The notes beneath the pieces were generated by a model. That model was not told the origin of the DNA. It did not search any database and saw only the letters and a list, made by a program, of their open reading frames with translations. DNA of 64,000 nt from Gammaproteobacteria bacterium. GTDB lineage: Bacteria > Pseudomonadota > Gammaproteobacteria > UBA4575. The first letter of the stretch is position 1, and the number at the start of each line of letters is the position of its first letter. Location: the NCBI GenBank assembly GCA_965262455.1, contig CBDHFH010000003.1:242737-306736 (forward strand), read 5' to 3'. The position numbers and the translations under genes were made by a program. Shown piece by piece: positions 11,018 through 20,260 of the stretch.

Positions 11018-11215
11018 ATGTATTTAGAATCTATCAGAGCTTCATGCCCTTACTGTGCGGAGCGAATCGAGTTCTTGTTCGAACCTTTGGATAGCGAGCA
11101 GGAGTATATCGAGGACTGTCAGGTATGCTGCCAACCAATTTTGATCAAAATTTCACCAAGCTATTCTGGAGAAAGCTGTCAATTTAGTTGCTTTAGAGTG
11201 GATGAAACAGGCTAA
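11018..11215 (+). CDS. CPXCG-motif cysteine-rich small protein
   Basis: CPYCAE...QEYIEDCQVCCQPI. Confidence 0.8.
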   Translation: MYLESIRASCPYCAERIEFLFEPLDSEQEYIEDCQVCCQPILIKISPSYSGESCQFSCFRVDETG

Positions 11216-11425
11216 ATTTGTGCAATCTAAGGGAAATATCGCTTGCGTTATGCACAGTCAAATATGACGTACATATAATGTCTATACAAAAGTAAAAAAA
11301 CACCCGCGTTATTAAACTGACACTAAAATAATGCTATATAATTCAAAAAGTTACTTCCATGGACAATTTTTAGGCGATTTAACAAACATGCAATAAAACT
11401 CGAGAAATAGACACGCTTTGATTCT

Positions 11426-11460
11426 TCATCCACAGTTTTATCCACAGATTTTGTGGATAA
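11426..11460. promoter_or_regulatory. DnaA-box triad A (DARS-like core) upstream of rpmE
   Basis: TCATCCACA(11426)-gtt-TTATCCACA(11438)-gattt-TGTGGATAA(11452); additional box TTATGCACA at 11248; IHF-like ATTCAAAAAGTTA at 11341. Confidence 0.75.
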
Positions 11461-11606
11461 GTAACGAACCCTAAATTCAACAACTACTTAGCGCTTGTTC
11501 TCAATGATCACATTAAATGTTGAATCTATATTTAATCGCTTCAAGCCCTTGCCATAATCGGCACGAATGGATTATAGTTCCGCCTCAATTTTTAGGCCAA
11601 CACACA

Positions 11607-11813
11607 ATGAAACCCGAGATTCATCCAGAATATAAAACTGTAACCATCAATTGTAGTTGCGGGAACACTTTCGAGACCCAGTCAACATACAATGGCGACT
11701 CAATCAGCCTTGATGTGTGCGCTAAATGCCATCCGTTTTATACTGGAAAACAAAAAATTGTGGATACGGCTGGTCAGGTAGATAAATTCCGTCGCCGCTA
11801 CGGTAATAAATAA
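11607..11813 (+). CDS. rpmE: 50S ribosomal protein L31 (Zn-binding type)
   Basis: [39 protein letters not shown]; start at ATG 11607; candidate sigma70 promoter TTGCCA-N18-TATAGT at 11549-11578. Confidence 0.97.
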
Positions 11814-15620: not shown

Positions 15621-16211
15621 CTAGGAAAACTGTCTCAGCCTTTTATGTAGAGGGCTTGTACGGGGAAAGTGTGCAAGTAGAAATTTCATCTGATCGGCCA
15701 TCACTCTGCGCCCTTGCAAGTAAATATACTCCGCATGGGTTGGCACAAAAGGCACTGCGATTAACTGCATTTTGGCTTGCTCAGGTGTGTAATTTGCTTT
15801 TTGATTGTTGCAACGCTTGCAGGCTGTGACGACATTTTTCCAGGTGTCTTCACCTCCTTGACTAATTGGAGTGACATGGTCGCGTGATAAATCTCTGCGT
15901 GAGAAACGTTCGCCACAATACATGCACAAGTGGGCGTCGCGCTTGAAGAGTGTTTGATTATTTAGCGGGGGAATGTAGCTTTCATGTAAGGATTTGTTGC
16001 TTCCATATGTAGCAATTATCGAATTCACTTCGATAAAGCTGTGCAGACCTGTTTTCGCATTCACGCCGCCGTGCACAATATATAGTGATTCACCACAAGC
16101 ATACGCTACTTGTTCAGAGTAATACAATTTCGTGGCAGCTTGGTAATCAATCCATTCCAGAGGCATGCCCGATACATCTGTCCGTAATACCTGTTGCCCT
16201 AATGCATGCAA
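15621..16211 (-). CDS. HNH endonuclease family protein
   Basis: LFKRDAHLCMYCG...RDHVTPISQGG.DTWKNVVTACKRCNNQK. Confidence 0.9.
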   Translation of the reverse strand: MHALGQQVLRTDVSGMPLEWIDYQAATKLYYSEQVAYACGESLYIVHGGVNAKTGLHSFIEVNSIIATYGSNKSLHESYIPPLNNQTLFKRDAHLCMYCGERFSRRDLSRDHVTPISQGGEDTWKNVVTACKRCNNQKANYTPEQAKMQLIAVPFVPTHAEYIYLQGRRVMADQMKFLLAHFPRTSPLHKRLRQFS

Positions 16212-16324
16212 GTTCCTTACTCCAGACTTGTAAGACGAGTGCTACTCTAATGATAGTCAACACATCTGGCAAGCACTAAAGCGGGATACACAATATGAAA
16301 GTTTTGTTAAACATAATGGTTCAA

Positions 16325-16750
16325 TTAGCGATTTTGCTTTTCCCATTTATGTTTTAATGCTTTTTGCTCCTCTGGGGGTAAGTCTTTGTACCATTGATAC
16401 TTACGCTTAATTTTTTCACGCTCTTCGGGTGGTAGGGATTTAAATTTTTCCCTGCGTTGTTGTACAGCACGCTTTTCTTCTGGTGTCATCTGACTCCATC
16501 GTTGCAAGCGATGTTGAATTTTATTCTTTCGTTCTTGAGGAAGAGAATCCCACTCACGTGTAAGGTGATTAAGCCGCTGTTGACGTTGCGCGGGTAATGT
16601 TGACCAATCATTTTTGATCGGTTCAAGTATGCGTTGCTGATTAGCATTCAACTGTTGCCACTCTATAGCCTCTTGAGAGGATACGGGCGAAATTGTTAGC
16701 AGCATAACTAAACACAGATTAAACAATAAAGTAGTTATGTGCATGCACAT
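16325..16750 (-). CDS. DUF3106-like exported protein with W-x-x-L-P repeats
   Basis: Signal peptide; repeats WQQL, WSTLP, WDSLP, WSQMTPEE, FKSLPPEE, YKDLPPEE; third gene of the ECF operon. Confidence 0.8.
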   Translation of the reverse strand: MCMHITTLLFNLCLVMLLTISPVSSQEAIEWQQLNANQQRILEPIKNDWSTLPAQRQQRLNHLTREWDSLPQERKNKIQHRLQRWSQMTPEEKRAVQQRREKFKSLPPEEREKIKRKYQWYKDLPPEEQKALKHKWEKQNR

Positions 16751-16759
16751 TGCAAACGT

Positions 16760-17116
16760 TTAGCCTTGTGACTCTTGTTGAGACAACCATAGGTAGAAGT
16801 CATACTGTTCATACAAGTCAATATTGGCATCGGCTTCAAATAACACTGCATCGAGCTGCATGTCGTTTACTTCATCAAACTGTAATTGAGGCTGACCAAC
16901 TATTAAAAATCCCGCTAACGCAACAATAGATGCAAACGTTGCAACCCCACCAAACATCGGCCATTTACTCCATATGCGCGTGCTAGCCTGATCATCGAGT
17001 ACTTGTGCACGAGTGATTTGTAATTGATAACGCGTATCTGCATCAAGCTCCTCGACAGAGCGATCAAGTACACTCTTAATTTGTTGATTTAATTTTTCTT
17101 GATTGATATTACTCAT
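16760..17116 (-). CDS. Putative single-TM anti-sigma factor (DUF3619-like)
   Basis: LDRSVEELDADTRYQLQITR, one TM helix, C-terminal DFYLWL; ATG at 17116 overlaps the sigma stop (ATGA). Confidence 0.75.
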   Translation of the reverse strand: MSNINQEKLNQQIKSVLDRSVEELDADTRYQLQITRAQVLDDQASTRIWSKWPMFGGVATFASIVALAGFLIVGQPQLQFDEVNDMQLDAVLFEADANIDLYEQYDFYLWLSQQESQG

Positions 17117-17685
17117 ATGTCTTCTGCTAATAATGATTTCAGTGTACTCATAGCACGTGATAAATGTGTTTTTACACTGCCCTGAGAGCATTTCATAATG
17201 TGTGCTGTTTCTTCAACATCAAATCCTTCCCAAATTCTCAATAATACTGTTTGCCGTTGTCGAAAGGATAACTTGTTAAGCGCTGACTGCAATTTACCCA
17301 TCGAAAAATCCAGCTGTGTTTGCTCCAGAGGCGAGGGTTGACTTGATTCAACTTGCAGCTCCTCATGAGATATGTCTTCTTCATTCGATTTTGACCAATG
17401 CAGCTTACTTCGCACACCCGACCATCGATGCCAGTCCTTGATGCGATTTTGTAAAATTCTATAAAACAAAGGTCGCCATTCCTGACTGGAATGATGAATA
17501 TAACGCTTCATTAGTGATTCCATTGCGTCCTGAACAAGATCCAGTGCATCACTGGCATTACGTGTTTCAATCATCGCCATACGGTATGCACGTTGCTCAA
17601 TCTGACTGTAGAAATTCGCTAGTTCCTGGCGCTGATCTTGTGTAACCTTCAGGACGATTTCCTCATTACATGGTTCATAATACAT
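17113..17685 (-). CDS. ECF RNA polymerase sigma factor
   Basis: DALDLVQDAM, FYRILQNRI.D, LS.RQRQTVLLR.WEG.DVEETA..M.CSQGSVKTHLSRA. Confidence 0.92.
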   Translation of the reverse strand: MYYEPCNEEIVLKVTQDQRQELANFYSQIEQRAYRMAMIETRNASDALDLVQDAMESLMKRYIHHSSQEWRPLFYRILQNRIKDWHRWSGVRSKLHWSKSNEEDISHEELQVESSQPSPLEQTQLDFSMGKLQSALNKLSFRQRQTVLLRIWEGFDVEETAHIMKCSQGSVKTHLSRAMSTLKSLLAEDI

Positions 17686-17751: not shown

Positions 17752-17957
17752 AGCAACCAGAAGGCAAACCTATTGCGCTTACTTAAAGAGGTTTATTCAC
17801 AATCAACATTAAAGTTATGTGAATTCTAGCTGGTTTCTCGCGGCCTGATAGAATTTACTCTAAGTGTATGATTTTTATGCAAGAAAGTTTGTATGCCGGT
17901 TGATCAATCTAAAAATAATGCGCTAGAAATACCTCTTCTAGGGACTTATTCGTATTC

Positions 17958-17992
17958 TTTTCCACATATTTATCCACAGCTTTTGTGGATAG
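17958..17992. promoter_or_regulatory. DnaA-box triad B (DARS-like core) upstream of priA
   Basis: TTTTCCACA(17958)-tat-TTATCCACA(17970)-gcttt-TGTGGATAG(17984); additional boxes TTATTCACA 17793 and CGATCCACA 17999; IHF-like AATCATACACTTA (minus strand, 17861-17873). Confidence 0.75.
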
Positions 17993-18049
17993 AAATTTCG
18001 ATCCACAAGACGCTTTATCTAACAATCTTCATGAACTAATTCTTTTAGA

Positions 18050-20260
18050 ATGATGACCTCAAAGAAGTTTGCTCAAGTGGCTATAGACTCACCCTTGAGA
18101 CAATTATTCGATTACCAAATTCCGAGTGAATTCGAGCACATCGAACCTGGCACACGTGTACTCGTGCCGTTTGGTCAGCGAAAGGTCGTAGGGATCATCA
18201 TCCACCTCACTCACGAGAGCAACATCAATCTTGCACGTATAAAAAATATTCACTCTGTGCTTGATCAGCAAGCCGTTTTTGATCAAGAAAGCTTCTCACT
18301 AATCAAATGGGCCACTCGCTACTATCACTTTCCTTTAGGCGCAGGTTTATTTAGCGCATTACCACCTGCTTTGCGCAAAGCCAATCAAAGCACGCGCATT
18401 GATGGTGAGAACACCTGGATGATTAGCCCTGACGCAATGCTTGCTGAGCTCAGTCGAGCTCCTAAACAAGCAGAAATTTTTGCCTGGTTAACCAAACAGG
18501 CTAATGAAGTGACAGCTACCATGCTGAATACACAATTCCCAAATAGTCACTCAGCCATTCATGCTCTCGAAACACGGGGATTTATTAATAAACAATCGGC
18601 CACTAATGACAGCCCACACATTGAGCAGGTAAACCCTGTAGCAATTAAATTAACCAATGAGCAACAGACTGCGTGTAAGTGTATTACTCAATCAATTGAT
18701 GAATTTAATGTAACACTGCTTGAAGGCGTGACGGGGAGTGGCAAAACTGAAGTCTACTTTAGTGCTATTTCTCATATCTTATCCCGCAATGCGTACGCCC
18801 AAGTGCTTATATTAGTGCCTGAGATTGGCTTAACACCACAATTACATGACCGCTTGATTGATTACTTCGGCATTAACATTGGTTTATTGCATTCAAATAC
18901 ATCTGCAAAACAACGCAAGCTTACTTGGCTAAAAATAGCCAAAGGTGATATTCGAATCATTCTAGGAACACGTCTTGCGGTGTTTACCCCGATACCGCAT
19001 CTCGCATTGATCATTATTGATGAAGAGCATGACGCTTCGTTAAAACAGCAAGAAGGGTTTCTCTATCATGCTCGTGATGTAGCGATTTACCGCGCCAAGC
19101 AAATGAATATTCCCATTGTATTAGGCTCCGCGACACCTTCATTTGAGTCTCTACATAATTCACAACTTAAAAAATACTCCCACGCACAACTGCAAAAGCG
19201 TGCGCTCTCTAGTGACATGCCCGACATTGAGTTAGTGGATATGCGCGCAGAACCGGCAGTAGCACCACTCTCCACACCCTTACTGCGTGCAATGAGTAAA
19301 CACCTAAGCGCTGGCCAACAAGTGATTTTATTTTTAAATCGTCGCGGTTATTCACCTGCTTTACTTTGTCACGACTGTGGTTGGGTAGCACAGTGTGATC
19401 GTTGTGATGCCAATATGACCTATCACAGTCAAAGTAATCAATTGATCTGTCATCATTGTGAACGCACACGCCGTAAACACGCGGTCTGCCCACAATGTCA
19501 TTCGACTAATCTCATCATGTTGGGTCATGGCACACAACGCATCGAAGAAACGCTGCTAAAAGAATTTAAGCAATATTCCGTTGTGCGCCTAGATCGAGAT
19601 GTGACTCGCCGTAAAGGGTTACTCGAAACAATTTTAAAAGAGATACGCCAACATAAACACCATATCATTATAGGCACACAAATCTTATCCAAAGGACATG
19701 ATTTTCCTAATGTATCTTTAGTCGGCATACTCGATATTGATTATGGTATTCATAGCGCCGACTTCCGTGCCTTAGAACGAAATGCACAGCTACTGGTACA
19801 AGTCGCTGGGCGCTCGGGTCGTCGCGAAACTAAGGGACATGTGATTGTCCAGACACATACCCCAGATCATCCTCTACTGTCGACATTAGTTAAATACGGA
19901 TATAGCTCTTTTGCCAAACAGGCATTGGCGCTGCGCTCTGAATGGAAGCTACCGCCATATACATATCACATTGCTATTCGCGCACGTAGCCACAATAGTG
20001 GTGATTTATTAACATTTTTAGACAAAGCCAAATCACTATCTGCCCAATTACTGCCGGATGAAATTACAGTTCAAGGGCCCATTAACGCCTCAATGGAAAA
20101 AAAAGCCGGCCAATATCGCGCATTCATTTTACTCACCATGAACCGACGTGGCATTTACACACAACACATCAATGATTGTTTAACTCAGCTAGATTCACTG
20201 AAAGCAGCAAAAAAAGTCAAGTGGAGTATAGATGTCGACCCGATTGATAATTTTATTTAA
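18050..20260 (+). CDS. priA: Primosomal protein N' (PriA)
   Basis: RVLVPFG, GVTGSGKTEVY, DEEHD, LNRRGY, CxxC Zn motifs, KGHDFP, QVAGRSGR, WSIDVDP. Confidence 0.97.
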   Translation: MMTSKKFAQVAIDSPLRQLFDYQIPSEFEHIEPGTRVLVPFGQRKVVGIIIHLTHESNINLARIKNIHSVLDQQAVFDQESFSLIKWATRYYHFPLGAGLFSALPPALRKANQSTRIDGENTWMISPDAMLAELSRAPKQAEIFAWLTKQANEVTATMLNTQFPNSHSAIHALETRGFINKQSATNDSPHIEQVNPVAIKLTNEQQTACKCITQSIDEFNVTLLEGVTGSGKTEVYFSAISHILSRNAYAQVLILVPEIGLTPQLHDRLIDYFGINIGLLHSNTSAKQRKLTWLKIAKGDIRIILGTRLAVFTPIPHLALIIIDEEHDASLKQQEGFLYHARDVAIYRAKQMNIPIVLGSATPSFESLHNSQLKKYSHAQLQKRALSSDMPDIELVDMRAEPAVAPLSTPLLRAMSKHLSAGQQVILFLNRRGYSPALLCHDCGWVAQCDRCDANMTYHSQSNQLICHHCERTRRKHAVCPQCHSTNLIMLGHGTQRIEETLLKEFKQYSVVRLDRDVTRRKGLLETILKEIRQHKHHIIIGTQILSKGHDFPNVSLVGILDIDYGIHSADFRALERNAQLLVQVAGRSGRRETKGHVIVQTHTPDHPLLSTLVKYGYSSFAKQALALRSEWKLPPYTYHIAIRARSHNSGDLLTFLDKAKSLSAQLLPDEITVQGPINASMEKKAGQYRAFILLTMNRRGIYTQHINDCLTQLDSLKAAKKVKWSIDVDPIDNFI

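Follow-up and report, generated by a model that had tools for sequence, protein, structure and literature searches.

Two putative DARS-type DnaA-box elements upstream of rpmE and priA in a gammaproteobacterium

We analysed a window of 64,000 nucleotides from a gammaproteobacterial genome (GTDB class Gammaproteobacteria, UBA4575; assembly GCA_965262455.1, contig CBDHFH010000003.1, positions 242,737 to 306,736 of the forward strand) and found in it two triads of DnaA boxes, one upstream of rpmE and one upstream of priA. On sequence grounds both triads are probably the cores of elements of the DnaA-reactivating sequence (DARS) type, each about 215-250 bp long. A sequence-only reading of the window had proposed a DARS-type element upstream of rpmE, and its proposal is supported at the sequence and comparative level by the core geometry, the IHF site, the conservation and the host factors. 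That reading did not contain the second triad, which has the same build and lies at 17958-17992 upstream of priA, and it also lacked the Fis-consensus dyad at 11361-11375 and the wide phylogenetic spread of the element. What we observed directly is the architecture, the match to the E. coli DARS cores, the conservation with fixed geometry and the presence of the host factors.

The first triad lies in a non-coding gap of 391 bp (11216-11606), given as about 390 bp in the sequence-only reading, between the end of a small CPXCG zinc-ribbon open reading frame (ORF) at 11215 and the start of rpmE (ribosomal protein L31, 68 amino acids, 11607-11813, plus strand), which is the gene downstream of this element. 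Its core (11426-11460) has the order that had been described for it: box III (TCATCCACA, 11426-11434, plus strand, one mismatch to the consensus TTATCCACA), a spacer of 3 nt, box II (11438-11446, plus strand, an exact TTATCCACA), a spacer of 5 nt, and box I (TGTGGATAA, 11452-11460, an exact TTATCCACA on the minus strand), which faces box II head to head. In the priA-side core, box III (TTTTCCACA, 17958-17966, plus strand) is followed by box II with the consensus TTATCCACA (17970-17978, plus strand) and, 5 nt further on, by box I (CTATCCACA on the minus strand, 17984-17992); boxes III and I each have at most one mismatch to TTATCCACA. This core stands 57-60 nt before priA (primosomal protein N', 18053-20260, plus strand; relatives start at the ATG at 18053, and an in-frame ATG is also present at 18050) and is divergent from a gene for an extracytoplasmic function (ECF) sigma factor.

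Alignment with the E. coli DARS1 and DARS2 cores, which the sequence-only reading had proposed as a check, gave a result in its favor. The two cores of the window, DARS1 and DARS2 align without gaps over 35 bp with 21 invariant columns, in the same orientation and with the same 3-nt and 5-nt spacers. The box offsets, 14 and 12 nt, are identical in all four. A scan of the MG1655 genome for the triad at up to three mismatches returned DARS1 as the sole match (NC_000913.3, 813108-813138, in the bioD-uvrB gap). PMC6868365 describes DARS as having three boxes, with box I oriented against box II at a distance of 5 bp, and as requiring Gln208 and Leu290 of DnaA; the dimer that DnaA forms head to head at DARS depends on Gln208, and the inter-box spaces are conserved in DARS1, DARS2 and the predicted candidates of other species. 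A tandem double box with 2-3 bp spacing is presented as the general DnaA binding unit at E. coli promoters (PMC11317965). Because tandem double boxes are general at promoters, the first two boxes are not diagnostic of DARS and the head-to-head third box is. The MG1655 scan, taken together with the DARS2 offsets, indicates that, where function is known, this geometry marks the two DARS loci and not the DnaA-regulated promoters.

The window showed no enrichment of single boxes (21 with at most one mismatch vs. 18.2 expected), and the 2.58 Mb genome contains 29 exact DnaA boxes. Exactly two triads with no more than two summed mismatches were found in this genome, with one and two mismatches, and the next candidates had five and six. 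The arrangement of the boxes, not their number, is the non-random part. We rejected a repeat or mobile element as the source of the two copies, which share nothing but the protein-binding motifs.

The likeness to DARS extends beyond the core. We collected 91 triad-anchored elements from many lineages, consisting of 78 from 77 named loci (one with two copies), 12 from loci of relatives and one from this genome; the remaining named loci, including L058 and L067, did not extend far enough to be placed in the anchored frame. Three further features share fixed distances on the box III side of these elements, namely a distal DnaA box, an IHF consensus and a Fis-consensus dyad. An exact TTATNCACA on the plus strand starts at -188 to -169 in 34 of the 91 elements (0-1 in controls), and seven more have it in the adjacent window from -168 to -149. 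The IHF consensus at up to one mismatch starts at -108 to -93 in 49 elements (0-4 in controls), and the exact Fis consensus starts at -78 to -63 in 25 (0-3 in controls, in non-overlapping windows). The rpmE-side element has all three. Its distal box (TTATGCACA, 11248-11256, plus strand) is at -181 from the triad anchor at 11429, and its IHF-like site (ATTCAAAAAGTTA, 11341-11353, plus strand, one mismatch to WATCAANNNNTTR) is at -88; both had been noticed in the sequence-only reading and are present as reported there. The dyad GGACAATTTTTAGGC (11361-11375, no strand assigned) matches the Fis consensus GNNYANNNNNTRNNC exactly at -68 and is a candidate Fis site. In the priA-side element the distal box (TTATTCACA, 17793-17801, plus strand) is at -168 from the anchor at 17961 and the IHF-like site (TAAGTGTATGATT, 17861-17873, minus strand, one mismatch to YAANNNNTTGATW) is at -100, where it overlaps a promoter-like -10 hexamer. 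The same 215-bp composite recurs before unrelated genes, including rpmE, priA, a DUF1232 gene in Pseudomonas, uvrC, exbB/tolQ-type genes and, at E. coli DARS2, rppH. This argues for a function of the element itself.

We examined conservation first among relatives and then across the class. In a set of 41 genomes (its own, genus, family and other families of the class) searched at up to one mismatch, the triad pattern was present in 31, including 15 of 15 of the same genus and 22 of 24 of the family, and a reversed control pattern gave no match in any of the 41. In a class sample of 301 genomes, each at least 90% complete and searched for exact matches to a slightly looser pattern, the triad was found in 135 (133 of 299 without the two unpublished genomes G141 and G285). 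The reversed control had no match in the 301 genomes, which makes the triad pattern a specific marker for genome annotation. Many genomes hold two or more copies of the element. Genomes of the same genus often have two, 5-6.5 kb apart, and by their flanking genes the copies fall into two types, one between hemW/CPXCG and rpmE and the other upstream of priA. In the class sample, G075 has five exact triads and G249 has four; the four of G249 are identical in sequence, which suggests a recent duplication or repeat.

Conservation of the triad in the rpmE-upstream regions of relatives had also been named as a check, and the triad with its spacers is kept in 11 of 11 family genomes. Also kept in the alignment of these 11 genomes are the IHF site, a promoter-like pair ahead of rpmE, the block CGATTTAACAAA and the distal box, in which TTATNCACA is invariant throughout. 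The IHF-like site has at most one mismatch in each of the 11 and is perfect in five. rpmE is directly downstream of the triad in all 12 family loci. The priA-side alignment, made of 11 same-genus loci together with the close relative L106 (12 genomes), shows that the distal box and the triad are kept, as are the block TAAGTGTATGATTTTTA and, ahead of the start codon, a palindrome CTTCATGAAG. Its distal box shows one variant each in L018 and L106, and the block TAAGTGTATGATTTTTA, which lies at the IHF-like site, is present in 12 of 12.

A scan of named records, with one genome per species, gave at least 115 stretches with the triad, and 80 with flanks were examined for context. Nearly all of the matches listed have the label Gamma- or Betaproteobacteria; the others include a few Alphaproteobacteria and a single Mariprofundus. 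priA is directly downstream and co-directional at 17 of the 80 listed loci (16 distinct places), at a distance of 1-149 bp, and homologous ORFs of other loci contain Pfam PriA domains. rpmE is directly downstream and co-directional at 14 of the 80, at 82-253 bp, and hemW ends 197-251 bp upstream in 12 of these 14. rpmE and priA are the commonest contexts among the matches listed (31 of 80). Less frequent contexts in the same list, assigned by Pfam, are a DUF1232 gene (eight loci, seven labelled Pseudomonas), uvrC (three alphaproteobacterial loci) and exbB/tolQ-type genes (three loci). The enteric contexts listed are of the DARS1 type at three loci, with uvrB assumed from ORF size, and of the DARS2 type, with the NUDIX gene rppH, at one.

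Several single loci from these scans are worth recording. In the alphaproteobacterial loci L045, L080 and L097 the triad is 18-113 bp upstream of uvrC, and two of the three have a dyad at zero or one mismatch to the Fis consensus near -70; to our knowledge, Fis is not found in Alphaproteobacteria. L060 (CALQLF020000015.1), labelled as a metagenome-assembled genome of the actinobacterial Planktophila, has the proteobacterial order rph-rdgB-hemW-triad-rpmE-M48 and is probably mis-binned. Tandem triads 270-780 bp apart are found upstream of priA in L008 (1224 and 1496), L069 (1720 and 2501) and L075 (2501 and 2936). In the E. coli priA-rpmE gap (L166, 4812-5013, 202 bp), where the two genes are divergent neighbours, no DnaA-box triad was found.

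The window elements resemble DARS2 in several respects. They share with it a three-box core in the same orientation with 3-bp and 5-bp spacers, matches to the IHF consensus about 75-100 bp off on the box III side (-90 and -74 in DARS2; -88 and -100 here), and, some 180-190 bp off on the same side, a further DnaA box. On that side DARS2 also has a Fis match, at -128, and the rpmE-side element has one at -68. DARS2 (rppH/ygdT-mutH intergenic region) stands 158 bp from rppH and precedes it in the same direction; as in the window, its box I is the one closest to the gene. The order within DARS2 is core, IHF-binding sites 1-2 (IBS1-2) and Fis-binding sites 2-3 (FBS2-3) in the Kasho 2014 supplement, the IHF and Fis sites being essential for its activity, and PMC11724364 places a PciI site at IBS1-2; our IHF matches in DARS2 adjoin that PciI site. 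DARS2 differs from the window triads in its summed mismatches, which are five as compared to one and two. It also differs in position: in the window one element is flanked by hemW and rpmE and the other precedes priA, whereas E. coli has DARS2 between rppH and mutH. The window elements share the identical core geometry with DARS1, and like it they are neighbours of a gene for DNA repair or replication. In the enterics Kosakonia, Citrobacter and Edaphovirga, DARS1-context loci have an IHF-type block near -100, as in the window, whereas DARS1 of E. coli K-12 has no IHF consensus at up to one mismatch in the anchored frame. DARS1 is reported to need no protein cofactor (PMC11724364). At DARS1 the divergent gene uvrB is on the box III side, whereas in the window the gene is on the box I side.

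The genome encodes the factors that a DARS would use. Its DnaA is 66% identical to that of E. coli, with Q208, V211, L214, Q215, F239, K243, D269 and L290 all identical, and domain IV, which binds DNA, is closely conserved, including R399 and R432-T436. Gln208, Leu290 and the sensor-1 residue Asp269 are required for DARS-dependent release of ADP (PMC6868365 and PMC5742627). ADP-DnaA should be formed, since Hda is encoded (230 bits, which exceeds the cut-off). The alpha subunit of IHF is also encoded (167 bits). A 93-amino-acid HTH_8 protein encoded directly after a dusB-like gene was taken as Fis; the position after dusB is the usual place of fis.

From these comparisons a mechanism can be proposed, in which DnaA and IHF binding, ADP release and an effect on initiation timing are all inferred from the likeness to the E. 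coli elements. DnaA would bind the consensus box II and would recruit a second DnaA to the tandem box III across the 3-bp spacing and a third to the opposed box I across the 5-bp spacing. The AAA+ domains of the molecules on boxes I and II, placed head to head, could then loosen the bound ADP through Gln208. The apo-DnaA would dissociate and rebind ATP, and initiation-competent ATP-DnaA would be restored after Hda-dependent hydrolysis. IHF, about 75-100 bp off on the box III side, is predicted to bend the DNA, and the bend may place the distal DnaA box and a binder of the Fis-consensus dyad next to the core, as happens with IHF and Fis at DARS2. Because the elements lie just upstream of genes, they may also modulate the transcription of rpmE or priA.

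Several observations weigh against the DARS reading. The Fis dyad of the rpmE-side element lies at -68, between the core and the IHF site, whereas the E. coli Fis match is at -128, beyond the IHF site, and the anchored-frame scan found no exact Fis-consensus match in the priA-side copy. The distal box at -181 is opposite in orientation to the DARS2 box at -188. Both window elements are origin-proximal, 165-171 kb from oriC or about 6-7% of the genome, unlike E. coli DARS1 and DARS2, which are not known to be origin-proximal. The 91 anchored elements, drawn in part from related genomes, do not represent independent cases. A conserved short distance to one particular gene would also be expected of a transcriptional operator. 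Judged from the motif matches, the layout resembles that of DARS2 in kind and in how far off the IHF site and the distal box lie, but it differs in the place of the Fis-type dyad.

The main rival to the DARS reading is a pure DnaA operator. The triads would then be operators for DnaA (plus IHF) that couple the transcription of rpmE and priA to the level or nucleotide state of DnaA and have no role in nucleotide exchange. The triads keep one orientation, in which box I is closest to the gene, and they stand at a short, conserved distance from it. priA acts in replication restart, and the DnaA regulon of E. coli spans replication, repair and nucleotide genes; E. coli DARS1 itself coincides with a DnaA site long linked to uvrB regulation (both from PMC11317965). 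A promoter-like match at 17845-17872 upstream of priA would put the priA-side triad in the transcribed leader. However, the -10 of this match coincides with the conserved IHF-type block TAAGTGTATGATTTTTA. This block sits where other lineages have the IHF consensus, and it may be either a promoter -10 or an IHF site. On the rpmE side the promoter-like site begins 88 nt past the end of the triad, which makes simple occlusion unlikely there. The DnaA-regulated promoters of E. coli have tandem double boxes without a head-to-head third box, which only the DARS loci possess, and the recurrence of the composite before unrelated genes also speaks against a gene-specific operator. Position alone is not discriminating, because the proven DARS2 likewise lies upstream of a co-directional gene. 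We regard a pure operator as unlikely, though better placed than the other alternatives, and operator and DARS roles may coexist in one element.

A role like that of datA, which the sequence-only reading had offered as an alternative, is not favoured and appears improbable to us. In this case the elements would be high-affinity loci for DnaA and IHF that titrate DnaA or, once initiation has occurred, promote the hydrolysis of the ATP bound to it, a biochemical effect opposite to that of DARS. Like datA, the window elements are non-coding clusters of DnaA boxes with an IHF site near the origin, here 165-171 kb from oriC. They contain several strong boxes, and their succession of distal box, IHF site and box cluster loosely recalls datA, where the IHF consensus lies between box groups. 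In E. coli datA, however, a tandem pair is followed by an IHF site and then by two convergent boxes 3 nt apart, and no match to the triad pattern was found in it at up to three mismatches. Eight boxes in all would give the two window elements a small titration capacity. That one of the gaps is oriC or a secondary origin is very improbable in spite of their AT-rich, non-coding sequence with DnaA boxes and an IHF site, since the GC skew turns at dnaA and not in the window, each element has four boxes and no box array beside an unwinding element was seen, and many genomes have two or more copies.

Throughout the window the cumulative GC skew of the contig (C3) declines steadily, and it reverses only at about 425 kb, where dnaA lies; it was on this turning point, 165-171 kb off, that the oriC reading was rejected. 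The gap between dnaA and dnaN (C3, about 425.97-426.21 kb; L001, 2821-3058) is very AT-rich, has two exact boxes, lies at the skew minimum and is the probable oriC. It has fewer consensus boxes than either triad element.

Other conserved sequences accompany the two elements. On the rpmE side the block CGATTTAACAAA (11375-11386, plus strand) lies between the dyad and the triad in the family alignment, and TTTAACAA blocks resembling it were found near -50 in other lineages. The promoter-like pair TTGCCA-18-TATAGT (11549-11578, plus strand), a consensus match, is a candidate promoter for rpmE, and its hexamer-like blocks are retained in the family alignment. On the priA side, the palindrome CTTCATGAAG, which reads CTTCATGAAC in the window, lies in a block at 18008-18030 between the triad and the start of priA and is conserved in most of the 12 aligned genomes. 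An inverted pair TTCACA / TGTGAA, about 17 nt apart, surrounds the distal box (17783-17826), in a block conserved in all 12.

In the window 6.2 kb separate rpmE from priA; the two genes share a strand, and each is preceded by an element of its own. The region between the elements (15621-17685) contains an ORF for an HNH-type nuclease (196 amino acids), the ECF sigma factor gene and two small ORFs (143 and 141 amino acids). The two small ORFs stay linked to the ECF sigma factor gene in relatives. Some genomes of the same genus (L017 and L027) are without the ECF cluster, and the HNH gene then adjoins the priA-side element.

DARS-like sequences outside E. coli are already known. According to PMC10380432, many proteobacterial species have conserved sequences that resemble DARS1 and DARS2, and DARS-like sequences are present at uvrB and mutH in Vibrio cholerae (PMC6090056). 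Kasho 2014 (Supplementary Figure S10) compared the core, IBS and FBS of DARS2 across eight species close to E. coli, reaching as far as Shewanella and Aeromonas. In the accessible parts of these sources the published sequences of other proteobacteria occupy E. coli-like positions, whereas the window elements are at rpmE and priA. Our literature search, whose scope did not include the original report (Fujimitsu 2009), found no paper placing a DARS at rpmE or priA, nor one testing a DARS outside E. coli. With DARS-like sequences in many proteobacteria already published, the extension made here is the presence of two copies, the link to priA and the composite geometry across the class.

A wider reading of these data, which we hold only tentatively and with less confidence than the DARS assignment itself, is that DARS is an ancient module of about 215 bp, made of a distal box, an IHF site, a dyad and a head-to-head triad at fixed distances. 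It would belong to the Gamma- and Betaproteobacteria and a few Alpha- and Zetaproteobacteria and would not be an enteric speciality, and the E. coli positions and the placement of Fis there would be derived. The IHF site about 100 bp and the DnaA box about 180 bp from the core offer a testable structural model for how bending by IHF aids ADP release. If the elements work as predicted, dedicated DNA sites that regenerate ATP-DnaA would belong to proteobacterial cell-cycle control in general. The repeated placement of the element before priA raises the question of whether the control of initiation is coupled to replication restart. If the ancient-module reading is true, one DnaA complex may both regenerate ATP-DnaA and set the expression of priA, and so link initiation to restart capacity.

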